Part shown: in pieces, positions 2,791 through 60,728 of the stretch | How the letters are laid out: each line of letters begins with the position of its first letter | How positions within the stretch are numbered: the stretch's first letter is position 1 | DNA from: an uncultured bacterium | GTDB lineage: Bacteria; Acidobacteriota; HRBIN11; JAKEFK01 | Direction of reading: 5' to 3' | Length of the DNA stretch: 64,000 nt | NCBI GenBank assembly: GCA_963777505.1 | Contig: CAVZQN010000003.1 | Span: forward strand, 64,001 to 128,000 | Notes under the pieces: model-generated | What the model saw: the letters and a program-made list of their open reading frames with translations, nothing else | Database searches by the model: none | Told to the model about the DNA's origin: nothing | Position numbers and translations under genes: made by a program

Positions 2791-4890
2791 TTAATATTTT
2801 TCACGGGAACTACATGCATCTAGTTGTCCAATGGAAAAATAGTCGAGATTAATAACCTGTCCCTCTTTGGAAGGCTTAATTGTGAGCAGATGATTTCCAG
2901 CGCGAATGGATCCAATTCCCGTCTCAGCTATTTTCCATTCTTCAGGTGAATGCCCAAAACCTCCTGAACTCTGAAAAATGATTACATCAACAAGCTTATT
3001 ATCCAGGTAGAGATAATACGTTTGAGAAATTGGCTCTTCGTAGGAATATCGTATGGAAATTCGTGCATTGGAAATATTATGTGGTGCAGAAAATTCATAA
3101 CTGGCGTAATCGGAAAGGTTATATCCCCAATAATCGGCAAGTGCATTTCCGTTCGACGTGAAGTCCATACTAAAAACATTGCCGCCGGATTTGTTTGAAA
3201 AGGATTCCGCTTCGAGCCGCAAACAAGATGGATCTATGGGTGAATTAATATTTGAAGCACCCAATTCATAAATCAAATAGACTGGATTTCCATCGCTTTC
3301 GTTAATCGATGTTGAGAGTGAATACTCATGTCTCACGTTGTCCAACGCCTTCTTGAAATAATGAAGTGATGGTTGAGATTCATATTTCGGAACATAAAAG
3401 ATGAATAGTGCATTGGGGATTTCAAATAAAGAATTCATTTCTAATAACTTTTCCTCTTCAGTAGAAAAGTTTCTAAAATCGATAGCAACTTCTTGTTTAT
3501 TGATCCGTTTTCTATTCAGCACAAGTAAGGGATTGCCAAGTCCCCAATCCATTAACAGGAAAGTTTTATCCTTCCGGGTCTCAGCATATTCCGCTAACTT
3601 ATAAATTGAATCCGACCATGCGCCTGCGCCCCCTTTTAATGCAAAGGAAGTAAGGTATCTGGCATCTACTACTAAATTTGAAAACAGAAGAAGGATGAAA
3701 CAGAAAGCTTGAAGATATTTCAAAAAGGGGATGCCTTTTTTAGAATTGTCAGGATGAACAGGATCAGTTTTTCTCGCAAATAATAATCCCGCGAGCAATA
3801 TCTGATGAAAAGGGTAGAGCATCATTATATGGTGCGGGCCGGTTGCCATTTCCGTAATATAGATGAATGATGCAGTAAGAATTAGCAGCAAAAAGTAAAA
3901 TAGAAAATATCTCCGGTTCTCAATCCAGTCTAATAAAGTAACTATCGGCACCAGGAGCACTATCAATATTGCGCCATAAGCCATCAAAGTTTTCTGAAGT
4001 GGAAAGCGTCGCAGCAGTTCATCAAACCTCGTCATTGCGTCCGTTGAAGTTCTTGTTGGTTTAGAAAAGAAGAATTCCGAATTTACCCATTCATAAATGG
4101 CAATGCCATTCAAAGTGTCATTAAAAAGAACACGCCGATGCTCAAATGTTTTTATGATTTCAGTATTAAGGACTTTTCGCTCATTAAAGATGTTCCAGGA
4201 AGATCTGACATTTGAAATGATTGAGGGAATCATGAAAGGAACAATGATGAGCGCACAAAGAGCCAATTTCTTCCAGGTCAGAATCGTTTTTAGATGCGGC
4301 CAAAAGAGCACTGTAAATGAAATCGTTACCGCTGCTACATACCAGAGAAAAACGGCTTTATCAAAGATCCCCAGGCCGATCACGAAGGCTGCCAGATACA
4401 AATAAACAGGTTGTCCGTGCTTCAGCCATCGAAATAGTAAAAAAAGCGAAAGCATTTTAAACAGCATCATCAAGCCGATCGGGCCTAAATCAAGTTTGTT
4501 TATGAAAATAAAAGCAGGATCGGTCGCAAATAATACGATTGTTGCGAGGGCCGTTCTTAGCCCAAGAGTGTTTCGCACAGTTAGAAATGTGAGTGCGAAA
4601 GTGATAAGGGCAAGAAGAATGGGTGGTATTCGAACCGTTGCAGGACTGGTTCCAAATATTTTAAAAATTGGAAAGTAAAAATATGATTTCAGCGCGCCAA
4701 TATATGGCATTAGCATTACTGGAATTCTGTATGGCCCGATTGGAGCTTCTAAATCGATGAAACTTCCATCTTCATTTCCTAACGCAACATTTACAAAAAG
4801 AGTTTCATCGTAGTACAGGCCAGGCTTATCAATATAAGAGAGTGAGCAAATCAGATAAATCGCTATCGCCAGGAAAGCGAGAAATTTCAT
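2791..4890 (-). CDS. GT-C fold (ArnT/PMT-like) membrane glycosyltransferase with C-terminal CBM6/CBM35-like beta-sandwich
   Basis: GLYYDE in the first loop and many TM helices; C-terminal LEAES...YASYEF...GNHLLTIK...INLDYFSI pattern. Confidence 0.7.
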   Translation of the reverse strand: MKFLAFLAIAIYLICSLSYIDKPGLYYDETLFVNVALGNEDGSFIDLEAPIGPYRIPVMLMPYIGALKSYFYFPIFKIFGTSPATVRIPPILLALITFALTFLTVRNTLGLRTALATIVLFATDPAFIFINKLDLGPIGLMMLFKMLSLFLLFRWLKHGQPVYLYLAAFVIGLGIFDKAVFLWYVAAVTISFTVLFWPHLKTILTWKKLALCALIIVPFMIPSIISNVRSSWNIFNERKVLNTEIIKTFEHRRVLFNDTLNGIAIYEWVNSEFFFSKPTRTSTDAMTRFDELLRRFPLQKTLMAYGAILIVLLVPIVTLLDWIENRRYFLFYFLLLILTASFIYITEMATGPHHIMMLYPFHQILLAGLLFARKTDPVHPDNSKKGIPFLKYLQAFCFILLLFSNLVVDARYLTSFALKGGAGAWSDSIYKLAEYAETRKDKTFLLMDWGLGNPLLVLNRKRINKQEVAIDFRNFSTEEEKLLEMNSLFEIPNALFIFYVPKYESQPSLHYFKKALDNVRHEYSLSTSINESDGNPVYLIYELGASNINSPIDPSCLRLEAESFSNKSGGNVFSMDFTSNGNALADYWGYNLSDYASYEFSAPHNISNARISIRYSYEEPISQTYYLYLDNKLVDVIIFQSSGGFGHSPEEWKIAETGIGSIRAGNHLLTIKPSKEGQVINLDYFSIGQLDACSSREKY

Positions 4891-7097: not shown

Positions 7098-8246
7098 ATG
7101 ATTATCGGAGTACCTGTTGAACGCTATCCTAATGAACAGCGCGTCGCGCTTGTTCCAGCAACTTTACCTGCCTTAACAAAAGCAGGGCTAAAAATATTGG
7201 TTGAAAGCGGCGCAGGAACCAAAGCAGGTTTTCCCGATTCAGCCTTTCAAGAGCAAGGCGCGACAATCGCTTCCGATCAAGCGCAGCTTTTCTCCGAAGC
7301 CGATGTCATTGTTCAACTTCATGGATTCGACCAATCCTCAAATATTTCCGTCTACCGGAAAAAACAAATTGTTGTTGGACTGCTTGACCCTCTTGGTACT
7401 TCGGCACCATTTGCGAAACTTGCTCAAAACGGTGTAATTACTTTCGCGCTGGAACTTTTGCCTCGCATAAGCAGAGCGCAAACAATGGATGCTTTGAGTT
7501 CAATGGCAACCATTGCCGGTTACAAAGCTGTTCTTCTTGCCGCCGATACTTCAAAGAAAATGTTTCCAATGATGATTACTGCTGCAGGAACAATTACTCC
7601 TGCTCGTGTATTCATCATTGGCGCCGGCGTTGCTGGACTTCAAGCGATTGCTACAGCTCGCCGCCTGGGCGCAATAGTACAGGCTTATGATGTTCGACCT
7701 GCTGTCAAAGAACAGGTTGAAAGTCTCGGCGCAAAATTTGTTGAACTTCCTCTTGAAACTCAACAAGCGGAAGGCTCTGGCGGATATGCAAAAGAAATGG
7801 GTGAAGACTTTTTAAAGAAGCAGAGAGAAATGATGACAAAAGTCCTTGCAGAAAGTGATGTAACAATCACTACTGCTGCCGTACCCGGAAAAAAAGCACC
7901 TATTTTAATTTCGAAAGACATGATTGCTGCAATGCGAAGTGGTTCTGTCATTGTTGATATTGCCGCAGAAACCGGTGGAAATTGTGAGCTTACTAAACCA
8001 GGTGAGACTATAAATGTTGATGGAATTTCAATTCTAGGCCCAATTAACCTTCCTTCTACAATTCCTTTTCATGCAAGCCAAATGTATGCAAAAAATGTCT
8101 CTACATTTCTTCTAATGCTTTTCAAAAATGGTGAGTTGAATCTCGATCTTGAAGATCCTGTCATTCGAGAGACTTTAGTTACTTATGAAGAAAAAGTGTT
8201 CAACCAAAGAGTGAATGAGGCGCTGGGTACGGCTCGAACGCAATGA
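7098..8246 (+). CDS. pntA: NAD(P) transhydrogenase alpha part 1 (domain I)
   Basis: EQRVALVP, PRISRAQTMDALSS, GAGVAGLQA and GSGGYAKE motifs; GAGGT SD before ATG 7098. Confidence 0.95.
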   Translation: MIIGVPVERYPNEQRVALVPATLPALTKAGLKILVESGAGTKAGFPDSAFQEQGATIASDQAQLFSEADVIVQLHGFDQSSNISVYRKKQIVVGLLDPLGTSAPFAKLAQNGVITFALELLPRISRAQTMDALSSMATIAGYKAVLLAADTSKKMFPMMITAAGTITPARVFIIGAGVAGLQAIATARRLGAIVQAYDVRPAVKEQVESLGAKFVELPLETQQAEGSGGYAKEMGEDFLKKQREMMTKVLAESDVTITTAAVPGKKAPILISKDMIAAMRSGSVIVDIAAETGGNCELTKPGETINVDGISILGPINLPSTIPFHASQMYAKNVSTFLLMLFKNGELNLDLEDPVIRETLVTYEEKVFNQRVNEALGTARTQ

Positions 8247-10042
8247 CATCTGAATTAGAAATTGGATTTTACATCTTCATGTTAGCCGGATTTCTCGGCT
8301 ATCACTTAATAACTCGAGTTCCTCCGCTTCTGCATACGCCATTGATGTCGGCTACAAATGCAATTGCAGGCATCTCTCTTGTTGGATCGCTCGTTGTTGC
8401 AGGCGGCGATTACGGTCCGATAAGCACACTCCTGGGATTTATTGCTGTGACCTGTTCTTCCACAAACGTCGTTGGCGGTTTTCTAATTACCGATCGAATG
8501 TTGAGAATGTTTCGGAGAAGCGATGATGATGTTTCACCTGAACGCCGTGCCAGAGTTCGCAAAATTGTAATTTCCATTGCAATCCTTGTAGCCATCGCGA
8601 TTGCAATCCTTATATGGAACCTTTCGCAGCAATCTGATCCAGGGATATTTCTACATGAAAAATTTTCATCAGAAGCTCTAAAGTATTCTTACATTTTTTC
8701 AGCTGCATTATTCATTCTAGGTTTGAAGGGTCTCAGCTCTCCTAAACATGCAAGAAAAGGAATGTTTGCCGCTGAATTTGGGATGTTCCTTGCTGTTGTT
8801 GGCACATTGTTTCATCACGAAATAGTGGAATATCAGTGGATTCTCATTGGATTCGTAATCGGAGCCCTAATAGGCGGCTGGATGGGATTAAAAATTCCTA
8901 TGACTGCTGTGCCGCAGCGGACTGCGCTTTCACACTCTCTTGGTGCATTGGCTGCTTGCCTCGTCGGAATTTCTGAATATTTTCGCCATCATGGCGAGCT
9001 GGGTAAGGTCGTAATGACAGCACTCGGTTTCGAAGTAGTTATTGGAGGCTTAACTTTTACCGGAAGTTTAATGGCCGCTGCAAAATTGCAAGAATTACTG
9101 CCTGGTCATCCCATCACATATAAGGGACAAAACATTTTCAATCTCACTTTACTTGCTGTAATTGTCTCAAGCATGATCTATCTCGTTTTTGTCCCAAATA
9201 ATCAAACTGTTTTTTATGTGATGGTTGCTCTTGCTTTTACGTTCGGGCTTTTACTCGTAATTCCGATCGGTGCTGCGGATATGCCTGTTGTGATCGCACT
9301 ACTGAACTCGTACGGCGGTCTCGCTGATGCAGCAATGGGTTTTGTTTTGATGAACAAAATTCAAATCATTACAGGATCACTTGATGGAACATCAGGATTC
9401 CTGCTTTCATTGCTTATGTGCAGAGCAATGAATCGTTCCGCATTTAATGTTTTATTTGGGGCATTTGGCAAAATTGAAGCTGGAGAAGAAGCAAAAGCTA
9501 TAGATTCCAAAGGCAGCGTTCGGAGTATCTCCCCTGATGAAGTGGTCTCGCTGCTGGATAGTTTCAGATCTGTGATCATTGTTCCAGGTTATGGAATGGC
9601 TGTTGCGCAAGCTCAATATGGAGTTGCAGAGTTGGCAAAAGAAATGATGAAGAAAGGTATCAATATTAAGTATGCGATCCATCCGGTGGCAGGGCGAATG
9701 CCTGGCCATATGAATGTTTTGCTTGCTGAAGCCAATGTTCCATACGATCAGTTGTATACAATGGAACAGATTAATCCTTACTTCCCGGAGGCAGACCTTG
9801 CACTTGTCGTTGGCGCGAATGATGTTACAAATCCTGCCGCCAGGAGCGACAAAAATAGTCCACTGTATGGAATGCCTATTTTAGAAGTAGATCGTGCCAA
9901 ATCGATTATTGTATTGAAACGCAGCATGCGTCCCGGTTTCGCAGGCGTTGATAATGAGCTATATTTCGATTCAAAATGTATGATGCTTTTTGGTGACGCA
10001 AAGGAAAGTTTGAACCAACTTTTTAGTGCATTAAAGTCTTAG
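8243..10042 (+). CDS. pntB: Fused NAD(P) transhydrogenase alpha part 2 plus beta subunit
   Basis: N-terminal VPPLLHTPLMSATNAI...TDRMLRMF (alpha2) is continuous with MPVVIALLNSY, VPGYGMAVAQAQ, HPVAGRMPGHMNVLLAEA and GANDVTNPAA (beta). ATGA overlap with pntA. Confidence 0.93.
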   Translation: MTSELEIGFYIFMLAGFLGYHLITRVPPLLHTPLMSATNAIAGISLVGSLVVAGGDYGPISTLLGFIAVTCSSTNVVGGFLITDRMLRMFRRSDDDVSPERRARVRKIVISIAILVAIAIAILIWNLSQQSDPGIFLHEKFSSEALKYSYIFSAALFILGLKGLSSPKHARKGMFAAEFGMFLAVVGTLFHHEIVEYQWILIGFVIGALIGGWMGLKIPMTAVPQRTALSHSLGALAACLVGISEYFRHHGELGKVVMTALGFEVVIGGLTFTGSLMAAAKLQELLPGHPITYKGQNIFNLTLLAVIVSSMIYLVFVPNNQTVFYVMVALAFTFGLLLVIPIGAADMPVVIALLNSYGGLADAAMGFVLMNKIQIITGSLDGTSGFLLSLLMCRAMNRSAFNVLFGAFGKIEAGEEAKAIDSKGSVRSISPDEVVSLLDSFRSVIIVPGYGMAVAQAQYGVAELAKEMMKKGINIKYAIHPVAGRMPGHMNVLLAEANVPYDQLYTMEQINPYFPEADLALVVGANDVTNPAARSDKNSPLYGMPILEVDRAKSIIVLKRSMRPGFAGVDNELYFDSKCMMLFGDAKESLNQLFSALKS

Positions 10043-18304: not shown

Positions 18305-18850
18305 TTAGATGGCCTGAGATTTCGAAACAAGTTTATCGCGGAATACTTCTTCAAGTTTTTTCATCTTTGGACGAATAATGTAAGTACAATAAGGCTGATT
18401 CGGATTGTTGTTGTAAAAATTTTGATGATATGGCTCGGCCGGATAGAAATTCGTGAAAGGAGTTATCTCTGTCACGATCGGACGATCCCAAATTTTTGCA
18501 GCATCCAGTTTCTTTTTGTACGCTTCTGCAAGCTTGCCTTGCTCCTCTGTATGATAAAAAACAGCGGAGCGGTATTGCGTTCCATGATCATTCCCTTGCT
18601 GGTTCAGGGTTGTAGGATCATGAGTCTTCCAAAATACTTCCAACAGCTCATCGTATGAAACCAGCGAAGGATCATAGGTGACCTGAATGGCCTCCGCATG
18701 ACCGGTTTCGCCACCACAGACTTCCTGATACGTAGGATTTTCTACAAAACCTCCTGCATATCCGGATACAACACTTTCTACCCCTTTCAACCTTTGAAAG
18801 ACGGCTTCAGTGCACCAAAAACATCCTGAACCGAAAGTCGCTTTTTCCAT
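18305..18850 (-). CDS. msrA: Peptide methionine sulfoxide reductase A (cytoplasmic)
   Basis: GCFWC; TGHAE; HDPT; AEPYHQ. Confidence 0.97.
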   Translation of the reverse strand: MEKATFGSGCFWCTEAVFQRLKGVESVVSGYAGGFVENPTYQEVCGGETGHAEAIQVTYDPSLVSYDELLEVFWKTHDPTTLNQQGNDHGTQYRSAVFYHTEEQGKLAEAYKKKLDAAKIWDRPIVTEITPFTNFYPAEPYHQNFYNNNPNQPYCTYIIRPKMKKLEEVFRDKLVSKSQAI

Positions 18851-45946: not shown

Positions 45947-46020
45947 GGGCCTATAGCTCAGTTGGCTAGAGCGCACGCCTGATAAGCGTGAGGTCAATGG
46001 TTCAACTCCATTTAGGCCCA
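45947..46020 (+). tRNA. tRNA-Ile(GAT); CCA not encoded
   Basis: GGGCCTA/TAGGCCC acceptor stem; CACGC-CTGATAA-GCGTG anticodon arm; TTCAACT T-loop. Confidence 0.97.
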
Positions 46021-46027
46021 CTCTTTG

Positions 46028-46104
46028 GATTTCAGATTTCAGATGTGAGATTTCAGATTGAAAGCGCTCTTCAATCTAAAATCTGAAATCTCACATCTGA
46101 AATC
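46028..46104. repeat. Inverted heptamer arrays (five plus five GATTTCA-like units) forming a long hairpin in the tRNA spacer
   Basis: GATTTCA GATTTCA GATGTGA GATTTCA GATTGAA - AGCGCTC - TTCAATC TAAAATC TGAAATC TCACATC TGAAATC. Confidence 0.88.
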
Positions 46105-46109
46105 TCGAT

Positions 46110-46182
46110 GGGGATATAGCTCAGTTGGGAGAGCGCCTGCTTTGCACGCAGGAGGTCAGGGGTTCGAATCCCCTTATCTCCA
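46110..46182 (+). tRNA. tRNA-Ala(TGC); CCA not encoded
   Basis: GGGGATA/TATCTCC acceptor stem with G3:U70; CCTGC-TTTGCAC-GCAGG anticodon arm; GTTCGAATC. Confidence 0.97.
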
Positions 46183-46188
46183 CTTCAA

Positions 46189-51600: not shown

Positions 51601-51685
51601 TAGCTCAACCGCCAAGACGCAAAGACGCCAAGAATTAAATCAAAAAAATATAACTTGGCGCCTTGGCGTCTTGGCGGTTGAGCTA
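51601..51685. repeat. Family A full inverted pair
   Basis: TAGCTCAACCGCCAAGACGCAAAGACGCCAAG-N21-CTTGGCGCCTTGGCGTCTTGGCGGTTGAGCTA. Confidence 0.88.
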
Positions 51686-51725: not shown

Positions 51726-51768
51726 TTACCACAAAGGCACAAAGATAACTTCGTGCCTTTGCGGTTAA
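51726..51768. repeat. Family A compact inverted pair
   Basis: TTACCACAAAGGCACAAAG-ATAA-CTTCGTGCCTTTGCGGTTAA. Confidence 0.8.
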
Positions 51769-52306: not shown

Positions 52307-53089
52307 TCACAGAGCTTTGCCAAGGAGTTCATCAACTTTTTCGCGATATCTCCGGCTGATTGTGAGTTCTGTTGAGTTACGTAGAATGACGCGGAAATCT
52401 CCGTGAAACAGAGGTTGAAGCTCTTTGATTTGATCAATGTTAACGATGGCAGATTTGTGAATGCGAACAAACTTTTTCGGATCCAATTCGGATTCGAGAT
52501 TGTTCATCGCATCCCGTATCAAGTGTGACTCTTGTCCGGCATGAATCATGACGTATTTGCCCTGTGCTTCAATCCAATCGATTTCATCTGTTTTAAGAAA
52601 CGAAACTCTTCCTTTACTTTTGATGATCAATCGATCCAAATAATGTTGATGTACTTTTAGCTCTTTCAACAAAGCTACAAGTTCGCGATTACTTGAGCCT
52701 TCATGATCCTGGGAGACTTGAGCTTTTCCACGTTCGAGAGCTTCCTGAAATCGTTTTTTGTCGAAGGGTTTCAAAAGATAATCAAGAGCATGGACTTCAA
52801 AAGCCTGAATCGCATAGCGATCGAATGCAGTAACAAAAATTACGCGAGGCATGTTGGACGAATCCAATGATTGCAGCACCTCAAATCCATCCATTTCTGG
52901 CATTTGAATATCAAGAAATATCAAATCCGGATGAAGTGTCCGGATGCTTTCGACAGCATCTTCACCATCGTTACACACTTTTATTATTTCAATTTCAGGA
53001 TCCTCTTTTAGAAGACGTTCAATCCTGCGGCAGGCAATCGGTTCATCATCGATGATGCAAACCCGAATCAGTTGTTTTGTTTCAGTCAT
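52307..53089 (-). CDS. LytTR-family response regulator with canonical receiver
   Basis: IIDDEP; FLDIQMP; FVTAFD; YLLKP; FVRIHKSAIVN. Confidence 0.95.
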   Translation of the reverse strand: MTETKQLIRVCIIDDEPIACRRIERLLKEDPEIEIIKVCNDGEDAVESIRTLHPDLIFLDIQMPEMDGFEVLQSLDSSNMPRVIFVTAFDRYAIQAFEVHALDYLLKPFDKKRFQEALERGKAQVSQDHEGSSNRELVALLKELKVHQHYLDRLIIKSKGRVSFLKTDEIDWIEAQGKYVMIHAGQESHLIRDAMNNLESELDPKKFVRIHKSAIVNIDQIKELQPLFHGDFRVILRNSTELTISRRYREKVDELLGKAL

Positions 53090-53091
53090 TT

Positions 53092-55344
53092 TCAAGTTAC
53101 CTCATTGATGCAGGCGAGACGTGCATCCTTCGTCTGTGGTCCCTTGTGAACCGGAATTTCGAGTGTAACGCGTAGGCCACCTTCGGGCGCATTTACCATT
53201 TCGAATCGATAGTCATTTCCATACAACTGCATCAATCGTTCTCGCGTATTTGAAAGTCCTAAACCTGCACGTTCAGGGTTCATTCCTCTTTTCAATTTAG
53301 GCAATCCAGGGCCATTATCCTGAATACTGACTGTCAACATCCCATTATTTCTCCTGGCACTGATATCAATTTGGCCCGGTGTTTTTCGTGGCGCAATCCC
53401 ATGTCTGATTGCATTTTCAACAATAGGCTGTAAAACCAGGTTCGGAACAGATACTTTCATTGCCTGCGCATCTATATCCATTGTGACGCTAAGTCGATTC
53501 TGAAAACGCACACGTTCAATGGCAAGATAACAGTTCAAAAATTCAAGTTCCTTTTCAAATGGGATTTCATGCACTTGATTGCTGTTGACCGTCAGATGCA
53601 GAAAATGTTGAAGATTCTCAATCATTTCCTTGGCCGCGCTGGGATTCTCTTGCATCAATTCGGAAATTGAATTCAATGAATTGAACAAGAAATGTGGATG
53701 GAGTTGCATTTTTAACGCTTGCAGTCGCGCACGGCTCAGTTGAGCATTTAGCTTGGTGGTTCGTATTTTCTCTGCTTCAATTCGGCGGTGATATCGGAGA
53801 GAGTTTTCAACAGCAACGATTGTTAGATAACAAAGAATGTCGAATGCAAAAGGTGTCCGGGCAACATACACGGGCAATATTTCTAGAAAATCATAGTGTC
53901 CAAACTGGGCAGCTGAGAGTACCACGGCATAAGTGCCGGCTGCCAGGAATAAAACACAAATGAACCCAAGTAGATGGACCATCATATGTTTCCAGCGATG
54001 CTCTTGCTGAAGAGGGAATCTGGCAGAGAGTTTCAAAACAAGTGGAGTGAATAATGCCCAGATGTACCATCCGGTTGAAGCAACCATTTGTCCGGCCCAG
54101 TCGAAAGTCTTTCCTGCGCTGGCATCCCTGATTATGGCTTGAATCGCGAAATAAACAGCAAGGATTGTAAAAATTCCTGTAATCACAAGCCATCTTCGAA
54201 CGGTATTCGATGGTTCTGAATTAAACTCAACCGGCCGGATGCTTTCTTCTTGAGCTTGGTGTTGAACAACTTCATCAGATTTTCTTTTTTCAAGGACAAG
54301 AGGGATTTCGATCCGTGTCGTACTTTTTTCGGAAAGATTCGAGATACGAACAGCAATCGAAGTTTGATATAAGGCGTTAAGCCTTTCTAATAATTGATGG
54401 AGGCGAGGACTTTCAGAATCCGTGTAAAGGTCTGTAATTGTCAGCACAAGAGACGTTTCGGTTTTCGAACTTACGATAACCAAATGGAGCGGATCATTAT
54501 CACGTCTGCGGCGGATGGCATCTTCGATCGGTGCGTGCAAAATTAAGCTAGGTACGGTGCATTCCAGCGAATCGCGATCAAGATCAAATTTGATTTCAAC
54601 ACGGTTCGACAATCTGATGTTTTCAATTTCCAAATAGCATTTGAGAAGATCAACTTCTTCTCGTAGAGTTACTTCAGAATTTCCCGAATTTTCAAGCGTC
54701 ATCCGAAGATAATCACCCAGGCGGGCCACCATATCATCCGCTTCGTCAAGATTGCGGTTCATCAGGTTTGGAAGTTGATTCAAGTTTTTGAAAAGAAAAT
54801 CAGGATCGATTTGCATCTTCAACGATTCGATTTGCGATCGAATAATGCTGTCTTCAATTCGCGAAGAGTGAATTTCTGTTTCAACTGCGGTCCGATGATA
54901 GTTCAAGGCCAGGCAAACCGACAAAATCATTTGGTAGATCAGGAAGCGCCACATGAAGGAATTGACAAAGGACGCAGTCAGCATTTCGCTAACAGTTTTC
55001 AAATCACGTTCAGGATGAAATGCCCATTCAGTGAACAGGACGTAAATAATTCCATGGACTGATGCCAGCAATAATCCTGCGAGAAAATGAGCCAGCAGGC
55101 TTTTCAATCTTGATCCGGTATCGAATCGAAACCTAGCTGCGAGAGCCGCAATGATCGGAAACAATGCCGCCCATAGATACCACGTCGTAATTTGACGCAG
55201 AAGTTGATCCTTCCATTGAAACGTTACATTGGCAAAAGTCGAGGCAATGTAATACTGGACTACGAAGGCCAACGCGATGATCGTGGCCATTCCAACAACA
55301 CTCAACGCGTGTTTTTGTCGCATTTTTTGAACCTGGACATTCAT
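53092..55344 (-). CDS. LytS-type histidine kinase with two tandem membrane-sensor plus kinase modules; the first module is degenerate
   Basis: Module 2 has QLHPHFLFNSLN, VENAIRHG, DNGPG and GLGL. Module 1 has QIDPDFLFKNLN, IEDAIRR and DLYTD. Confidence 0.92.
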   Translation of the reverse strand: MNVQVQKMRQKHALSVVGMATIIALAFVVQYYIASTFANVTFQWKDQLLRQITTWYLWAALFPIIAALAARFRFDTGSRLKSLLAHFLAGLLLASVHGIIYVLFTEWAFHPERDLKTVSEMLTASFVNSFMWRFLIYQMILSVCLALNYHRTAVETEIHSSRIEDSIIRSQIESLKMQIDPDFLFKNLNQLPNLMNRNLDEADDMVARLGDYLRMTLENSGNSEVTLREEVDLLKCYLEIENIRLSNRVEIKFDLDRDSLECTVPSLILHAPIEDAIRRRRDNDPLHLVIVSSKTETSLVLTITDLYTDSESPRLHQLLERLNALYQTSIAVRISNLSEKSTTRIEIPLVLEKRKSDEVVQHQAQEESIRPVEFNSEPSNTVRRWLVITGIFTILAVYFAIQAIIRDASAGKTFDWAGQMVASTGWYIWALFTPLVLKLSARFPLQQEHRWKHMMVHLLGFICVLFLAAGTYAVVLSAAQFGHYDFLEILPVYVARTPFAFDILCYLTIVAVENSLRYHRRIEAEKIRTTKLNAQLSRARLQALKMQLHPHFLFNSLNSISELMQENPSAAKEMIENLQHFLHLTVNSNQVHEIPFEKELEFLNCYLAIERVRFQNRLSVTMDIDAQAMKVSVPNLVLQPIVENAIRHGIAPRKTPGQIDISARRNNGMLTVSIQDNGPGLPKLKRGMNPERAGLGLSNTRERLMQLYGNDYRFEMVNAPEGGLRVTLEIPVHKGPQTKDARLACINEVT

Positions 55345-55430
55345 GCTGTAATTTTATATTCGCTATAAACGCACCCAATTACAAACGGAATAAGGCGGAT
55401 ATTATCTGGCTTAATGTGGAGATTTTTGTG

Positions 55431-55505
55431 CAGAAAATCAGGGGCGGTGATCAGGCCGCCCCACCATGGAGGAGCAATGCAGGGGCACAAGACTCTGTGC
55501 CCCTG
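55431..55505 (-). terminator. Two GC hairpins downstream of the TonB receptor (terminator or REP-like)
   Basis: CAGGGGCACA-N6-TGTGCCCCTG; GGGGCGG-N8-CCGCCCC-TGATTTTCT. Confidence 0.6.
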
Positions 55506-55514
55506 TATGTACTC

Positions 55515-58442
55515 TTAAAAACTGTATCGAACTCCCAAGCGCAAAGCCCTGGGTGAAATCAATTCATCGATTCGATTGAACGAAGCGGAGGATACGTTTC
55601 GGAGTCGTCGAACAACCGCATTCGTATTCGTTACATTAAACAGATTTGCGGACACGGCAAGACGACCATAATTCGCGAAATCGAAGCCTTTTTCAAACTG
55701 TAGATCCAGTGTAAAAATGTCATCGAATCGCCGGTCGCCAAATGGCTCAACAAGGATCAGGTGATTTGTAGTGCCCAAAGAGGAAGCCAGTGAATCATCA
55801 CGGATCGTTGCAAGCAGAACGTAAGGATAGCCCTGCTGATAACGGCCAAAAGCGCCAACAGAAAAATCCCATGGCAACTGATAAACACCGCTCATCTTGA
55901 ATTGCCATTCTGAATAAGGATAAACACCCGCTTTTCCGCTTCCACCGGGAGCAAAAGCATAGGGATGACCATCAAGAAATGGCAAGTTTGTTGGATCGAA
56001 TGGAAATACCTGACCGCTCAAGCCGCCATCACCAATGTAGAACGAAAGTGAATCACCACCATCATAGTTAGCTTTTTGTTTCTGCAGGGTTAAGCCAGCA
56101 TTCACCATGAAGTTGTTGCTCATCCGTTTGCGAGCGGTGATATCAATCCCGTCATATTTAGTTTTGTAATCATTCGCATTCGTCAAGATCTGATCGCCAT
56201 CATCAACACCGCCGTAAACGAAATACGGAACGTTGAAATTTCCCAGAGCTGTATTTGCAGTAAACGTACCACCAGGGACAAAGTCAGCTTCTGATATTCC
56301 GAAAGGTACGATCACAGTGTTATCACGGTAGTCGCGATGAGTGTAAGTGGCACTGACTGATAGATCTTGCATGAGTTGGCGTTCGAACCCAACGATGTAT
56401 TCCCAGGAACTTGAATTCCTGAGATCCTCATCGATCTTCCTGCTATCTTCAAATGCAGCCAGATCAAATGTTGGCCCATTCAATCCGCCAAAATAAGAAG
56501 GTGGTCCGGTAATTTCATCCGGAGTAATAACACGATCACCGTTGCTGTTTTCGAATGGCAGAATCGCACCGTTGTAAACGAAGGTGGGATTCTGATACGA
56601 AATGAATGCGTTATTCAACGCATCGTAATATCGTGCGAAATTTCCACGAACGATGGTCTTTCCATCTCCGGTGAAATCGTACGTCACGCCAAGACGCGGC
56701 GAAATGTCATTGAATGAAATTCCGGGATCATTGCCCGGATATTCCAGCTGACCAACAAGCGATTCGAAACCCGGTACTCCCGGAATTGATGAAGCTAGAT
56801 TTTTTCCGGTTTGATGATCAAAGCGGAATCCAAGATTTAGAGTCAGCCTGTTTCGGCGATATGTATCTGTCGCGTAAAAACTAGCACGATCTAAATCAAC
56901 TCTTCCATCAATCCAATGCTGGGCATAAAGGATCCCTGAAGTCAGTGGCCCTTGTGGCGTAGTTTGGTTGTAGTCAACAATGAACACACCATTTCCATAC
57001 GAACTGAAGGTGTGAAGATTTGCTGATTTGTATTCGAATCCGAACTTAAATTCATGATCGCCACCCATTACGTTTTCGCTGAAGTAATTTCCATCAACAA
57101 CGAAATCATGCGCAGGGCGATCAATGGGGGCCGTGTAAAACAGAGTGTCTTCGTAGCGTGGAATGGCGGCCAGGTAGATCATCGGTATATCTTTTCCACC
57201 ATTCGGTTTTAATGTGAATCCGAGACCGACGTATCCGTAACGTCCGGTGACAATCATTTGATCGCTGGGGATCCAGGTATGTTGTGCTGTCCAGATGCCT
57301 GGAAGGATCGTATCGGTACCGGCTTGTTCCCAAAGTGTTTCCGGAGCTTGCAGCGCAATCGAAATTCCTGCTCTTCCGGATTTCGTTTTTTCGCCTTGGA
57401 AGTATCCGAATTGCGATTCATGAGCAGGAGACCAACTCGCGTTTGCTTTAAAGTTGAAATCTTCGAGTTCAGTGAGATCAGCAGTATTCGCTGTTGTAAT
57501 CAAACCAATATCGTTTTTGCGATACGCACCCCAAACAAAGAATTTGTCTTTTATGATCGGTCCGCCGATATCAAAACCATAGTCTTTAACTTCATCGAGC
57601 CGGTTTGATTGAGCTCCGATCGATGCGAGTTCATCAGGTGTGTTATCGCCTTGAAGACTATCACCGGCGTAAAAATAGGAAGCACTTCCTTCCCATCGAT
57701 TACCACCACGTTTTGTGACAATGTTAACGATCACACCACCGGTCGGTGCGGACGCATCATTTCCACCGGTAGAAATTTGCAGTTCTTCAAATGCATCGAA
57801 ATCAAAATAGGTTGGTGATGCACCCATAGCTCCTGGGTCGGTTGCATTCACACCATCGTAATTGAAGATTGTATTGTCATCGTTTCCGCCTCGCGCAATA
57901 AACGATGCTTGCTGTCCAGACTCAGAACCTGCGACATTGTAACGATCTGAATCAACACCAGTAGTTTGATCGATGATGGTCCATGGGTCGCGAGCACTGG
58001 GAACATCTTCCAAATAATCACGACTGTACGTATCGGATGTGCCTGTTTTTTTGGTATCGACAACAGGTGTTTCGCCGATTACTGTAAATTCCTCAGCGAG
58101 CGACGGCCGCAATGTAATTTCAAGCTGAACCTGCGAGCCAGTGCTGATGCGTACTTCTTCCTGACGTACTTCCGTAAATCCTTCGATTGAAAAATTCACA
58201 GAATAAACTCCAGGAGGCAGATTCGCAAAGCGGAAACCGCCAGAAGCACCAGACGTTGCAGTCTGTGTAGGAATTTCATTTGATTCAAGCGTAATCAGTA
58301 CGCCAGGTAGTGGACTGCCTTTATCATCTACAGCTTTACCGTAGACGGAACCCGTCTTCATTGAAACTTGTGCGAAGAGGGGATAGGCAATTGCAGAAGC
58401 AAAGAGAACCACTACCATTAGTATGAACGATTTAGTTTTCAT
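55515..58442 (-). CDS. TonB-dependent receptor, Oar-like, with N-terminal carboxypeptidase-regulatory-like domain
   Basis: Signal peptide; G...D..G.PLPGV...F..LPPG.Y; GGVIVNIVTKRG plug motif; C-terminal PRALRLGVRYSF. Confidence 0.93.
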   Translation of the reverse strand: MKTKSFILMVVVLFASAIAYPLFAQVSMKTGSVYGKAVDDKGSPLPGVLITLESNEIPTQTATSGASGGFRFANLPPGVYSVNFSIEGFTEVRQEEVRISTGSQVQLEITLRPSLAEEFTVIGETPVVDTKKTGTSDTYSRDYLEDVPSARDPWTIIDQTTGVDSDRYNVAGSESGQQASFIARGGNDDNTIFNYDGVNATDPGAMGASPTYFDFDAFEELQISTGGNDASAPTGGVIVNIVTKRGGNRWEGSASYFYAGDSLQGDNTPDELASIGAQSNRLDEVKDYGFDIGGPIIKDKFFVWGAYRKNDIGLITTANTADLTELEDFNFKANASWSPAHESQFGYFQGEKTKSGRAGISIALQAPETLWEQAGTDTILPGIWTAQHTWIPSDQMIVTGRYGYVGLGFTLKPNGGKDIPMIYLAAIPRYEDTLFYTAPIDRPAHDFVVDGNYFSENVMGGDHEFKFGFEYKSANLHTFSSYGNGVFIVDYNQTTPQGPLTSGILYAQHWIDGRVDLDRASFYATDTYRRNRLTLNLGFRFDHQTGKNLASSIPGVPGFESLVGQLEYPGNDPGISFNDISPRLGVTYDFTGDGKTIVRGNFARYYDALNNAFISYQNPTFVYNGAILPFENSNGDRVITPDEITGPPSYFGGLNGPTFDLAAFEDSRKIDEDLRNSSSWEYIVGFERQLMQDLSVSATYTHRDYRDNTVIVPFGISEADFVPGGTFTANTALGNFNVPYFVYGGVDDGDQILTNANDYKTKYDGIDITARKRMSNNFMVNAGLTLQKQKANYDGGDSLSFYIGDGGLSGQVFPFDPTNLPFLDGHPYAFAPGGSGKAGVYPYSEWQFKMSGVYQLPWDFSVGAFGRYQQGYPYVLLATIRDDSLASSLGTTNHLILVEPFGDRRFDDIFTLDLQFEKGFDFANYGRLAVSANLFNVTNTNAVVRRLRNVSSASFNRIDELISPRALRLGVRYSF

Positions 58443-58482
58443 AGCTTCTCCATTTGGTTAGGTTATTGTTCAAAGAACCTTG

Positions 58483-58499
58483 AGCAAGCCCCATGCCAG
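58483..58499 (-). promoter_or_regulatory. Putative sigma54 promoter of the TonB receptor
   Basis: CTGGCATGGGGCTTGCT = GG-N10-GC, 40 nt before the ATG. Confidence 0.7.
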
Positions 58500-58670
58500 T
58501 GAATCAATCGACGGAGAAATGAATCAGCCACGCGATGAAAATCAAACTTTTGTTCCGTGTAAGTGCGCTTGCCTTTCTTGATAACGAACAATTCGTTCCT
58601 CGAAATGCATCAATCGTGGAATTTTCCGAATCGCACAGGCCAAGAACTGAAAGTTGAATGGCGATTAGCT

Positions 58671-58725
58671 TTTTTGTGTTTCTTTGTGGCTGTGTGGTAA
58701 AAGGATTTACCGCAGAGTCGCCGAG
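58671..58725. repeat. Family A back-to-back arms; one supplies the last codons and stop of the LytTR gene
   Basis: TTTGTGTTTCTTTGTGGCTGTGTGGTAAAA; TTTACCGCAGAGTCGCCGAG (encodes SATLR* on the minus strand). Confidence 0.65.
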
Positions 58726-59486
58726 GGTGCTGATTTGAGTGCGGGCAGTTTCGATTTGCGGCTTAAAACAAGAAGAGTTCCATCTTGAAGCACGACTTGA
58801 TAGGTTCTGCGGTAATTCCAGGGTTGAACACGTCTCACGCGCTCAATGTTAACAATTGTAGATCGATGAATTCGAACGAATTGCACCGGATCTAATTCCG
58901 CTTCAAGCGCTGAAATGCTGATCCTTAAAACAAGAGATTCTTTTCCAATATGGAGACGGACATATTTTCCATCCGCTTCAATCCAATCAAGTTCATCGCA
59001 TTTGATAAAATTTACAGTCCGTCCGGTTCGTATTGTTAAATGTTGTTGGCCGCGCCTAATCCCAATTGAAGGGACTTGACTCTTGATGCGTTCGGCTTCA
59101 CTGCGAGCGCGGTCTAACGCTTTCAAGAAGCGGCTTTCGCTCAAGGGTTTCACAAGATAGTCAACTGCTGAAACTTCAAAAGCGCGTGCAGCAAAATGAT
59201 CAAGACTACTAACAAAAATTGTAACCGGGCGATATTTTTCTGGAAGCGAATCCAATAGCGCAAATCCATCAATGCCCGGTGATTCGATTTCGCAAATTAA
59301 AATATCAGGTTTGAAGTCTCGCACCATTGAAATCGCTTCCATTCCATTTGCACATACTTCAATCTCTCGCGTGGAAGGTTCATTTGTTAAAGTTTCAATC
59401 ATTGTTTGCCGTAACACTGGATCGCTCTCAACGATAAGGAACCGAAGTTTCATATCTAAAGATTTATCTGTCATTGCGGCTCTCAT
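58707..59486 (-). CDS. LytTR-family regulator with atypical receiver (phosphoacceptor Asp replaced by Glu)
   Basis: IVESDP; ILICEIESP; YLVKP; FVRIHRSTIVN. Start at 59486 directly follows the msrA stop. Confidence 0.9.
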   Translation of the reverse strand: MRAAMTDKSLDMKLRFLIVESDPVLRQTMIETLTNEPSTREIEVCANGMEAISMVRDFKPDILICEIESPGIDGFALLDSLPEKYRPVTIFVSSLDHFAARAFEVSAVDYLVKPLSESRFLKALDRARSEAERIKSQVPSIGIRRGQQHLTIRTGRTVNFIKCDELDWIEADGKYVRLHIGKESLVLRISISALEAELDPVQFVRIHRSTIVNIERVRRVQPWNYRRTYQVVLQDGTLLVLSRKSKLPALKSAPSATLR

Positions 59487-59487
59487 A

Positions 59488-60036
59488 TTAATTTCCCCAC
59501 AATTCACGCAATTGACGATCCCGGCCGCATTGAATCTTATACTGTTTATAACGGCGAGCATTCTTTTTATAAAAATCCTGCTCGCTTTCTGCAACCGCAG
59601 AAAATTGCATTGCCGGGAAAATTGGCGTAACAATCTGCTTATTCAGGATTTTTTCAATTTTGAGTTTCGATTCTTCAGCCAGTATTTTTTGGCGGTCATC
59701 ATGATAGAAAATTGCGGAACGATATTTTGGGCCGCGATCGCAGAATTGACCATCCGGATTTGTTGGATCGATATTTTTCCAAAAGACTTCTAGTAATTTC
59801 TCGTACGAAATTGTTTCAGGATCATATACGATTTCCACAGCCTCGACACTTACTGTTTGTCCGGATGAACCAACCACTGAAAAACCCGTTGTCGTTGAGA
59901 GAACCCCATCCAACGTGTCAAAAGGTTCTTCCATGCACCAATAGCAACCTCCGGCAAAAGTTGCCTTCGCAGTTGTGGCCTGTGCCGAAACAATTTGAAA
60001 AGCAAGTAAAAAAACAACTAAGAATCTCAGGATCAT
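59488..60036 (-). CDS. msrA: Exported MsrA (second copy)
   Basis: Signal peptide; GGCYWC; GQFCDRG; CGRD. Confidence 0.88.
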   Translation of the reverse strand: MILRFLVVFLLAFQIVSAQATTAKATFAGGCYWCMEEPFDTLDGVLSTTTGFSVVGSSGQTVSVEAVEIVYDPETISYEKLLEVFWKNIDPTNPDGQFCDRGPKYRSAIFYHDDRQKILAEESKLKIEKILNKQIVTPIFPAMQFSAVAESEQDFYKKNARRYKQYKIQCGRDRQLRELWGN

Positions 60037-60149
60037 AAAGCGAACTCCTTCATCCATTACAAATTAATTGGCATTGAACAGCGGAACAATGGTTTTGCCG
60101 CGACCGGTTCGTTGCGTGGCGCAAGTTAGAGAAACACGCCGCATATGGG

Positions 60150-60623
60150 CTAAGAATATTTTCGTGTTGCAAGGGAGATGGGAAGTCCGACACAAAATAT
60201 ATGTATGGTCAAACCTACAAGAAGCCACGCAAAAGCGAATGAAGTTTTGTGGGGAAAAGCAGAAAGAGGTAACACGATCAATTGCATAAAGAAGTAAACA
60301 GCAATTCCGTAAAGGATGCCGCAAACAACGGCATGTTGCACAAGGAAATGTAACCTGCGACTTAAAATAAAAAAGACTGTAGCCGCACTGAACGCAATGA
60401 AGAAATGTAAAAAGACTCCCAGCGCCGCAGTAGCCAGATCGCCTTCATACGATTTCGCACCGAGAAGTCCACTTGCTATGGATTGCATGATCAGGACAGG
60501 ACTTCTACCTCGCAGCAATCCATAAACAATGATTGCCGCAGTCAAGTCCATCGCCCCGCACATCAAGCCGCCGATCAGAATTGCACGATTTGTTTTTGAA
60601 GCGATTGCTATATTCATTGCCAT
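60150..60623 (-). CDS. Four-TM membrane protein (DUF1440-like)
   Basis: QSIASGLLG; LGVFLHFFIA; HIFCVGLPI. Confidence 0.8.
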   Translation of the reverse strand: MAMNIAIASKTNRAILIGGLMCGAMDLTAAIIVYGLLRGRSPVLIMQSIASGLLGAKSYEGDLATAALGVFLHFFIAFSAATVFFILSRRLHFLVQHAVVCGILYGIAVYFFMQLIVLPLSAFPHKTSFAFAWLLVGLTIHIFCVGLPISLATRKYS

Positions 60624-60728
60624 TGCCGAAAGATACGTTACGCTTCTTCAACGAGCAATTGTTTTGGTGCAAGCGGTTTCTTTGCGTGCCCAAGTGCGAG
60701 AAAAATCGGGGAGAAAGGGAGGTGTCTG

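Follow-up and report, generated by a model that had tools for sequence, protein, structure and literature searches.

Why should one gene cluster hold a sensor kinase and a LytTR regulator in duplicate, each once with the residue that carries phosphate and once without it? The question is raised by a locus within the stretch of 64,000 nucleotides that was analysed here as a whole (the window). Its six open reading frames all lie on the minus strand, in the order given by an earlier note on this DNA: a four-transmembrane (4-TM) protein, an exported MsrA, a D-to-E LytTR regulator, a receptor, a tandem kinase and a canonical LytTR regulator. The note took them for a doubled two-component circuit, with one phosphorelay arm and one allosteric arm, possibly responding to envelope oxidation or to a ligand that the receptor imports. 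As argued below, a kinase with a single active site built from two unlike halves probably accounts better for the data.

Conservation of the neighbourhood

Of 80 loci that were screened, only three carry a full orthologue of the tandem kinase (L001, L002 and L003); these three are the loci with DNA context besides the window, and only one of them has the D-to-E gene. L001 holds the identical six genes in the identical order between different flanks. L002 and L003 conserve the order in part, both keeping the 4-TM gene, msrA and the tandem kinase, and in L003 the kinase comes directly after msrA. The gene order thus withstood the test of neighbourhood conservation, fully in L001 and partially in the other two. 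Matching of contigs by length in the protein tables, where most contigs are short, linked msrA to the kinase in three cases (one being L001) and to the atypical LytTR in four; it gave no link among 89 lower-ranked MsrAs and no match between the kinase and the atypical LytTR. The only host named among the relatives of the locus is an uncultured Acidobacteriota bacterium.

A tandem kinase whose halves have lost different parts

The tandem kinase gene (53092-55344, minus strand) encodes two PF06580 stretches (143 bits, above the cut-off), with HATPase_c (47.9 bits) following the His_kinase domain. The two modules are 29% identical over 312 amino acids. Module 1 (about residues 1-352; 54289..55344, minus strand) comprises a membrane domain, a DHp domain and a degenerate CA domain; its phospho-His is replaced by Asp182, the N-box Asn by Asp275, and the G boxes are absent. 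Module 2 (about residues 376-750; 53092..54219, minus strand) has its own membrane domain, a PHF H-box with His551, and intact N, G1 and G2 boxes (Asn644, DNGPG, GLGL). The loss in module 1 is not due to chance, since the His is missing there from all 22 tandem proteins that cover the H-box, in a set of 23 including the window's, while module 2 has intact His and ATP boxes in 23/23. The membrane domains of the tandem kinases match no Pfam family, 5TM-5TMR_LYT included, and PF07694, the sensor of LytS proper, gave no match in any of 41 members at E 0.1.

The earlier description of the kinase as once intact and once unable to carry phosphate is right about the lost phospho-site, but "intact" says too much of module 2. 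From stand-alone PF06580 members we defined a motif in helix 2, [GSA]xxxR (small-xxx-Arg). It is found in 63/63 stand-alone kinases from the profile search, in 73/74 from loci that had been selected by pattern, and in GanS (PDB 6SWJ); an independent control, a set of plasmid kinases, has the Arg in 12/12 and the full motif in 11/12. Module 1 carries this motif (Gly210...Arg214). Module 2, which bears the His, has lost it, with Gln579 and His583 in its place.

This split recurs. Of 72 tandems with one dead and one live module, 61 have the motif solely in the dead module, 11 have it in both and none has it solely in the live one (72/72 dead against 11/72 live modules), although these counts are not independent events because the rows are related. 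It is confined to the dead module in all 24 members of the window's family (self included), in 25 of 27 other dead-first tandems and in 12 of 21 dead-second ones, whereas the 6 tandems with both modules intact all keep it twice. Retention in dead modules is partly selected, because the profile behind the searches was built from the dead module; this bias is no explanation for the loss in live modules. In 10/10 tandems where the dead module's CA domain is mostly or wholly gone, the motif is there and is absent from the partner, and unfused gene pairs in two further loci (L010 and L007) are divided likewise. The complementary pattern is therefore seen whichever module comes first, also where the CA domain is deleted and where the two halves are separate genes. 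Only 1 of 97 tandems has the His and a working CA domain on different modules; 19 of the 97 are mixed.

Could module 1 be a slowly decaying relic? Its CA domain is indeed the fastest-diverging part of the protein and is absent from some relatives. Yet across 41 tandems, at identities down to 23%, the DHp of the dead module is conserved along with its Arg, and Arg214 is one of only two module-1 columns invariant in them; a relic is unlikely.

A proposed single-chain asymmetric enzyme

The complementary degeneration of the modules argues for one composite enzyme rather than parallel arms, and as each module is without a different essential part, they are probably functional only as a lopsided pair. 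We give a probability of about 60% to the reading that the protein is a pseudo-dimer in a single chain, a kinase whose one active site is composite, and that it drives a LytTR-type envelope output. The whole locus would then be a single two-component system of the LytS/LytTR type, whose unusual sensor is a natural single-chain form of a normally homodimeric kinase. Its two membrane-plus-DHp modules would pair mutually, inside one chain or crosswise between two chains, and form a four-helix bundle in which only one face works. Module 2 would provide the phospho-His and the ATP-binding domain, and the presence of both on the same module implies autophosphorylation in cis. Module 1 would provide a second, diverged membrane domain as well as the helix 2 of the partner side, on which the small residue and the Arg conserved in the family stand; by contributing this helix the dead module would be an obligate half, and not a separate allosteric arm. 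If the active face of a cis kinase relies on the helix 2 of the same protomer, retention of the motif in the partner needs further explanation.

Structure prediction lends weak support to the pairing of module 1 with module 2. The score was 0.57, against 0.00 for the best of three controls; the pairing mark was reached by 116/157 solved complexes and 2/215 mismatches, but scores of 0.60 or below include only 18 of the 157 solved complexes and both mismatches. At least 95% of contacts were shared between runs, and the partner pLDDT was at least 74. The pass may be due to likeness with solved kinase dimers. One GanS protomer aligns over kinase-model residues 174-735, these being end points only (Z 17.6, rmsd 4.1, 186 aligned).

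Alternatively, module 1 could act as a tethered inhibitor, or as a second sensor, on an otherwise ordinary module-2 homodimer, in the manner of RetS with GacS or of the ChrS pseudokinase, without being a required half. Pseudokinases are known to modulate by forming heterodimers (PMC9491836; for RetS/GacS, as cited in PMC12675982), module 2 retains every classical box, and the Arg still stands in 10/24 live modules of the family. However, the small residue is found in 0/24 of these, versus 63/63 stand-alone kinases, and a module-2 homodimer would be without the motif on both faces. We consider this alternative unlikely and retain the composite enzyme.

Two regulators, one probable partner

The canonical REC-LytTR regulator (52307..53095, minus strand; Asp62) has a probable ATG start at 53089, 2 nt past the kinase stop, and a canonical LytTR also stands behind the tandem kinase in L001 and L002. 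By adjacency it is the cognate partner of the kinase, from which it would receive phosphate. The atypical REC-LytTR regulator (58707..59486, minus strand), whose ATG lies 1 nt past the msrA stop, has Glu66 as acceptor (ICE66IE, against FLD62IQ in the canonical copy). With a PF00072 match of 59.6 bits it is an Asp-less receiver; its acidic pocket has changed from DD to ES and its FVRIHRS DNA-binding motif is kept. Asp62 versus Glu66 thus confirms that the regulator occurs once intact and once unable to carry phosphate. In the clade of the atypical LytTR (n=15), the acceptor is Glu in 12 and Asp in 3.

In the doubled circuit, a phosphorelay arm would consist of module 2 and the canonical LytTR, and a phosphate-free allosteric arm, with DivL-like docking, of module 1 and the D-to-E LytTR. 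Both pairs do co-occur in the window and in L001; the dead DHp is conserved (68% identity to L001, versus 71% for the live one) and could offer a docking surface in its helix 2; and DivL is a known case of a histidine pseudokinase repurposed as a sensor for a regulator (PMC4211667). Against this, L002 keeps the His-less module with no D-to-E gene in the 10 kb to either side (its second LytTR has kept the Asp and is of separate origin), L003 goes from msrA directly to the kinase, and the D-to-E gene sits behind a LytTR box, as an output gene would. Moreover, the proposal leaves unexplained both the motif loss in live modules and the same split in unrelated tandems and unfused pairs. Co-duplication of the two LytTR genes, which the earlier note had offered as a phylogenetic check, was not recovered in the free tree, nor was it rejected (p-AU 0.37). 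Given the complementary module losses, the state of L002 and the 12 Glu to 3 Asp of the clade, the pairing of pseudo-kinase with pseudo-regulator is not upheld, and a doubled circuit appears improbable.

Under the composite-enzyme reading, the D-to-E regulator is probably an output or feedback gene and not the partner of the dead module, because it lies 1 nt behind an msrA gene preceded by a box. Since it would need no kinase and keeps its DNA-binding motif, its likeliest role would be feedback, with the induced protein sustaining or damping the response, or regulation at a second tier. Phosphate-independent activity is suggested by analogy with ComE D58E only, a LytTR regulator that becomes a dimer active without its kinase (PMC4005675); constitutive activity is often not obtained by a D-to-E change alone (PMC4395418).

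Candidate regulon

A LytTR-type box, two imperfect 9-bp direct repeats 12 bp apart, precedes the 4-TM gene (60665..60694, minus strand), and a second, found with a held-out matrix, precedes msrA and the D-to-E gene behind it (60096..60125, minus strand). When only the L001 and L002 sites had been used to train the matrix, the msrA box ranked first and the 4-TM box second in the whole held-out window. Held-out ranks were 1 and 2 in L001, and 2 and 6 in L002, where the 4-TM box is sixth and the rank-1 box is a new site just 5' of the second LytTR. Repeat scans of single regions did not rise above shuffles. Such boxes stand before the 4-TM gene and msrA in three loci, so that the functional link between neighbours, which had rested on adjacency, is supported by common upstream boxes besides synteny. 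The canonical LytTR would bind these repeats and activate two promoters; the first would serve the 4-TM gene, the second msrA together with the D-to-E gene.

The 4-TM protein (60150..60623, minus strand) is an inner-membrane protein of unassigned family, with four hydrophobic segments, two conserved His and a weak, below-cut-off match to DUF1440. Its orthologues in L001-L003 are 64-68% identical, and its gene is a probable output gene. The 4-TM gene is also found on plasmids, there with no regulator nearby.

The exported MsrA variant (59488..60057, minus strand; probable start 60036) begins with a hydrophobic, signal-like segment and scores above both cut-offs (PF01625, TIGR00401). In common with MsrA it has the catalytic Cys (equivalent of Cys51), Trp, Glu94, Asp129, Tyr134 and C-terminal Cys; it differs in being exported and in the deletion of the Tyr82 loop. 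It also lacks His186 of the substrate pocket. Of the 30 closest relatives, 27 have lost the Tyr82 loop and only 8 keep His186; of the next 90, 11 have lost the loop. A canonical MsrA is encoded elsewhere in the window. The input would most likely be an envelope or periplasmic cue sensed by the membrane domains, and the output sulfoxide-reducing.

The receptor

The receptor (55515..58442, minus strand) is an outer-membrane beta-barrel resembling TonB-dependent receptors (CarboxypepD_reg, OMP_b-brl_4), in what we take to be an Oar-type architecture. The barrel match is above the cut-off, the Plug match is weak and below it (E 3e-6), a C-terminal Phe is present, and no solved relative was found in the PDB by sequence. 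A sigma-54-type -24/-12 promoter (58483..58498, minus strand) precedes the gene. It is the only match in the window, where 0.31 were expected and 27/100 shuffles had one; across the 80 loci there are 3 matches, all 5' of the L001 and L002 receptor genes. Further 5' is an IHF-like site (58540..58552, plus strand), inside a stretch conserved in L001, its pattern having 3 matches in the whole window. A GC-rich, terminator-like hairpin lies in the gap between receptor and kinase (55441..55462, minus strand), with a similar one at that spot in L001. The box-matrix scan found no LytTR box for the receptor gene. With this and the sigma-54 promoter, its proposed place within a doubled circuit loses support; the receptor would be linked to the locus but driven by its own promoter.

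These data bear on a looser association, in which a regulated core of 4-TM, msrA, kinase and LytTR genes would have the receptor and the D-to-E gene as passengers and module 1 as the relic considered above. The receptor's own promoter and the terminator behind it fit such a view, as do its changed position in L002 and the weakly related receptors near 20/77 other loci. However, receptors at 39-81% identity (81% for the L001 orthologue, 39-40% for two L002 paralogues) occur only in tandem-kinase loci, twice in L002, and the conservation of the dead DHp speaks against a relic. We regard this association as very unlikely on the whole, though the receptor by itself may be a passenger.

Asymmetry and its uses

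Histidine kinases are textbook homodimers, and the asymmetry of their protomers is hard to dissect because each mutation affects both. Natural tandems separate the roles: in a family as poorly understood as LytS/PF06580 (relatives of BtsS, LytS and AlgZ), they indicate from which protomer the His, the ATP site and the helix-2 Arg come; the pattern predicts autophosphorylation in cis and points to residues to mutate. The chances seem even that we are dealing with a recurrent, apparently undescribed class of PF06580 single-chain asymmetric kinases, with one active site and two membrane sensors, coupled to an envelope sulfoxide-reducing output and a latching phospho-mimic LytTR. Gene doubling or fusion would free the protomers to specialise, and evolution would repeatedly confine the His and the ATP site to one half, with the helix-2 Arg motif kept by its partner. 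Two different membrane sensors feeding one site could make a two-input gate, while the kinase would drive the envelope sulfoxide-reducing module and the phospho-mimic LytTR would latch the response. Dead modules of tandem kinases should not be annotated as relics. The locus further offers an exported MsrA that diverges from the usual form, a LytTR with a natural D-to-E change and, with its defined boxes, a candidate regulon.

Comparison with known systems

In LytTR systems of the LRS type, a LytTR protein is likewise encoded near a small membrane protein, with upstream direct repeats 12 bp apart, a spacer typical of LytTR boxes (PMC6193735); the repeats described here fall within the 11-13 bp spacing. 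An LRS is described as a two-gene operon in which a regulator is encoded together with a membrane protein that inhibits it, and its signalling does not follow the phospho paradigm (PMC6193735), whereas here each of the two regulators carries a REC domain, there is a kinase, and the 4-TM gene stands upstream, apart from both regulators. The D-to-E receiver resembles the Asp-less receivers: among these the Asp is most often replaced by Glu (26%), and many have lost the second acidic residue and retained the Lys (PMC4395418), all as in the window; unlike them, the clade of the D-to-E receiver keeps the Asp in 3 of 15 members. The term LytTR is absent from the main text of that paper.

DivL, ChrS_CA-fs and PsmA share with module 1 a kinase fold without catalysis (PMC4211667, PMC12963549, PMC9491836). 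They are described as stand-alone proteins, while the dead module of the window is fused to a live one that is itself without the family motif. With LytS/LytTR-type systems (BtsS/BtsR, YpdA/YpdB, AlgZ/AlgR; GanS, PDB 6SWJ/6SWK) the locus shares the PHF H-box, the PF06580 plus HATPase_c core, the adjacent REC-LytTR gene and the direct-repeat boxes. It differs from them in having two complete membrane-kinase modules per chain, with complementary losses, and a second, non-phosphorylatable LytTR among the putative targets. Degenerate ATP lids do occur in the PF06580 family, since AlgZ is without G boxes (PMC4064291).

Our literature search found no such tandem kinase, and the closest precedent is the two-gene FasB/FasC heterodimer. 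In the FasB/FasC/FasA system of S. pyogenes, two kinase-like halves heterodimerise through their DHp domains, one half is a proposed pseudokinase, and the output is a ComE-like regulator (PMC12675982). FasB and FasC are separate genes with a proposed trans split, FasB giving the kinase domain and FasC the His (PMC12675982). In the window, by contrast, the His and the ATP site are both on module 2, and the partner would give helix 2.

Organization and conservation of the gene unit

Six minus-strand genes lie at 52307..60698, as the earlier note listed them: a gene for a protein with four transmembrane segments (4-TM), an exported MsrA, an atypical LytTR regulator with a D-to-E change, a receptor, a tandem kinase and a canonical LytTR regulator. 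Pfam matches PMSR in the MsrA, Response_reg and LytTR in each of two genes, and CarboxypepD_reg and Plug in the receptor, a beta-barrel; the kinase gene encodes 750 aa, with two stretches matching His_kinase. The best 80 of 366 confirmed stretches from a genome scan were examined as loci, and three of these (L001, L002 and L003) hold a full tandem-kinase orthologue. The genes had been tied together on the basis of adjacency, and this linkage holds in the neighbourhoods recovered: L001 has all six in the order of the window, between flanks unrelated to those of the window, and L002 and L003 keep the 4-TM gene, msrA and the tandem kinase. Identities in L001 are, in gene order, 68, 59, 61, 81, 62 and 74%, and the D-to-E change is kept; its receptor orthologue (81%, L001 6486-9414) is interrupted by a frameshift that may be an assembly error. 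L002 reads receptor, 4-TM, msrA, tandem kinase, LytTR, second LytTR (Asp kept), second receptor and second His-less kinase, and L003 reads 4-TM, msrA and kinase up to the contig end. L002 13717-20666 includes a second sigma-54 receptor, a split peptidase, presumably M13-like, and the second His-less kinase, which apparently continues into a further module truncated where the locus ends.

Among the other 77 loci, msrA is found in two, the 4-TM gene in one and receptor matches, all weak (23-29% identity), in 20. In L047, a 4-TM homologue (2843-3394) stands immediately 3' of a single-module kinase and LytTR pair. The remaining gene-context evidence comes from shared contigs, inferred from equal longest-contig sizes in protein tables. 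For the 30 closest MsrAs, three such contigs carry a tandem kinase (one being L001) and four an atypical LytTR; for 89 lower-ranked MsrAs, none carries either. In these tables no kinase and atypical LytTR are linked directly by an inferred shared contig. Among hosts of tandem loci, just one is named, an Acidobacteriota bacterium. Flanking genes (VOC downstream, btpA/pfkB upstream) were ruled out as members of the unit, their homologues occurring in none of the 80 loci.

Elsewhere in the window, a tRNA-Ile(GAT) and tRNA-Ala(TGC) pair was found by RNA family search on the plus strand (45947-46183). Such pairing is typical of rRNA spacers; the window contains no rRNA gene, and no RNA family besides the two tRNAs. 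A plus-strand transhydrogenase gene (8243-10042) fuses the 4TM region and the beta subunit in a single 599-aa ORF.

The two modules of the kinase

Over 312 residues, the modules share 29% identity. Module 1 has Asp182 in place of the phosphorylatable His, Asp275 in place of the N-box Asn, and lacks the G boxes. In module 2, His551 and every box are present. Asp182 was ruled out as a new acceptor, because Glu, Gln and Ala also occur at this position. The AlphaFold model of the whole protein (pLDDT 75.8, pTM 0.52) gives each module four N-terminal helices leading into the DHp, followed by an alpha/beta CA domain. A hydropathy scan finds just three and two segments over threshold in the two modules; the four membrane helices assigned to each module are predicted from the model.

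A search with module 1 returned 31 proteins, 23 of them tandem, counting the window's own. The first H-box lacks its His in all 22 tandems that cover it, and module 2 is intact in 23/23. A profile search added 73 two-module kinases among the 150 proteins listed, so that the 97 tandems comprise 24 of the window's family, 27 others with the dead module first, 21 with the dead module second, 6 with both intact and 19 mixed. No tandem kinase was found in 208 plasmid records at 80% query coverage.

Complementary loss of the helix-2 motif

Helix 2 of the DHp carries a small residue followed four positions later by Arg in all 63 stand-alone kinases of the profile search. Of the 74 stand-alone kinases in the loci, a set selected by pattern, 73 have it too, the exception being the live gene of L010. 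Two controls outside this selection agree: the Arg is conserved in all 12 plasmid kinases, the full motif in 11 of them, and GanS carries the motif too. Among the 72 tandems with one dead and one live module, all dead modules and 11 live ones carry the motif, and no tandem has it solely on the live side, although the profile was built from the dead module and the rows are related, so that these counts share ancestry. It is confined to the dead module in 24/24 of the family, 25/27 of the other dead-first and 12/21 of the dead-second tandems. The 19 mixed tandems, which stand outside this count, have it in the first module in 14 cases and in the second in 15. The dead CA domain is mostly or wholly absent in ten tandems (P0021, P0056, P0059, P0086, P0097, P0111, P0113, P0122, P0144 and P0152); all ten dead modules retain the motif and all ten partners are without it. 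The same division is seen in two unfused adjacent gene pairs (L010 8396-10657 and L007 1-1573), where a live kinase without the motif is followed by a motif-keeping kinase with the His and without the ATP box. No LytTR gene was found in the L010 locus.

A FastTree of 260 modules places the two modules of one protein as sisters in 11 cases, and four of these already show one-sided motif loss (supports 91-99), which means that the pattern arose more than once. The module-1 and module-2 subtrees of the family branch alike; this tree, with its long branches, does not separate internal duplication from fusion of paralogues as the origin of the window's tandem.

The earlier note had proposed two parallel arms, one a phosphorelay and the other allosteric. 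This is probably wrong: the complementary loss of the motif in dead and live modules points instead to a composite kinase. We infer that the two halves would pair in one bundle, share a single composite site and undergo autophosphorylation in cis. Just one of the 97 tandems, P0089, possibly a trans-type split, has the His on one module and a working CA on the other.

Structure prediction lends modest support to a pairing of the modules. One protomer of GanS can be superposed on the model over residues 174-735 (Z 17.6, rmsd 4.1, 186 aligned). The predicted complex of modules 1 and 2 scores 0.57 against 0.00 for the best control, a pass that counts as weak support and may be due to resemblance with kinase dimers already solved; the pass mark was met by 116/157 solved complexes and 2/215 mismatches, and passing scores at or below 0.60 include just 18 of the 157 together with both mismatches. 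The runs agree in at least 95% of contacts, with partner pLDDT of at least 74.

LytTR regulators and LytTR-type boxes

The upstream, atypical regulator has Glu66 at the acceptor position, has lost the DD pocket and shares 37% identity with the canonical copy. Its clade comprises 15 sequences (support 100), with Glu at the acceptor in 12 and Asp in three; the DD pair is present in none, and FVRIHR, the conserved DNA-contacting stretch of LytTR domains according to excerpts of PMC4227749, in all 15. No alignment of the DNA-binding domain to AgrA or ComE was among the results. Co-duplication of the two regulators, which the earlier note had put to phylogeny, is not seen in the free tree, where the atypical clade and the canonical copies do not group as sisters; the sister constraint is not rejected (p-AU 0.37). 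D58E is described as making ComE dimeric and kinase-independent (PMC4005675, in part), and an Asp-to-Glu change as often insufficient (PMC4395418, in part). The latter paper, on aspartate-less receivers, has a supplementary architecture table that could list LytTR cases.

The regions upstream of the 4-TM gene (60665-60694) and of msrA (60096-60125) share an element with their counterparts in L001 and L002. It consists of a pair of imperfect 9-bp repeats with 12 bp between them, a spacing given as typical of LytTR boxes in the available text of PMC6193735. These boxes were detected solely through comparison between loci; direct-repeat scans within single intergenic regions gave none above shuffles. 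With a matrix trained on two loci and scored on the held-out third, the boxes rank first and second in the window, first and second in L001, and second and sixth in L002, where the top rank goes to a new site directly 5' of the second LytTR. In both arrangements, then, a box lies upstream of the second regulator (D-to-E in the window), consistent with a putative induced feedback or second-tier gene. Kindred boxes occur directly 3' of LytTR genes accompanying single kinases, at L011 11582-11625, before a small exported protein, and at L049 10468-10511 and L062 11696-11739, before an amino-acid-permease-like gene.

A candidate receptor promoter

Direct control of the receptor or kinase gene by this box was set aside, no LytTR box lying 5' of either. 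The receptor is preceded by what we take, from its consensus, to be a sigma-54-type promoter. It is the single match in the window, which alone is not significant (27/100 shuffles); the 80 loci contain three matches, all 5' of the L001 and L002 receptor genes. An IHF-like site lies about 40 bases 5' of it. A terminator-like hairpin follows the gene; scans for sigma-70 promoters and terminators were overall at chance level. Since sigma-54 promoters require an enhancer-binding protein, the receptor is unlikely to be under simple control of these LytTR regulators; it could still be a supplier of the signal. A 20-nt element at 51726-51745 recurs inverted before the receptor (58681-58700), and a long hairpin with 32-nt arms, 94% complementary, lies between the VOC and amidase genes (51601-51685); both are possibly REP-like.

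MsrA and the 4-TM protein

The exported MsrA has the equivalents of Cys51, Glu94 and Tyr134 and lacks His186 and the Tyr82-bearing loop, which is absent in 27 of its 30 closest relatives as well. Since either Tyr82 or Tyr134 can donate the proton (PMC6210582, in part), altered activity is likelier than none. A second, canonical MsrA (18305-18850, minus strand) has no signal-like N-terminus and an intact Tyr82 loop and His.

The 4-TM protein belongs to no clear family or fold: its Pfam match to DUF1440 is under the cut-off, and its model (pLDDT 79.5) gave no Foldseek match at E 0.001, the best being an S-component (E 0.32), and a best Z of 7.3 in structural comparison. Any MsrQ-like haem role of its two His residues would be a guess. 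Genes that we take, from their translations, to be methionine-salvage-like lie 5' of the L002 cluster (L002 2-4291) and of the unfused kinase pair of L010 (L010 6323-8281); such neighbours would fit a sulfur or methionine link.

Comparison with known systems

The best explanation as a whole, to which we give a probability of roughly 0.6, is a circuit of the LytS/LytTR kind, its sensor being an obligate kinase/pseudokinase pair. The literature searched, a partial coverage of main texts, yielded no PF06580 kinase with a dead and a live module in tandem. Further related papers, available in part, are PMC4064291, PMC9491836, PMC12471899, PMC11109136, PMC4211667 and PMC12963549. The closest likeness is to FasB/FasC, for which an obligate kinase/pseudokinase pair is proposed in excerpts of PMC12675982; the window's kinase differs from the system described there in that its halves are fused and the parts are divided otherwise between them.
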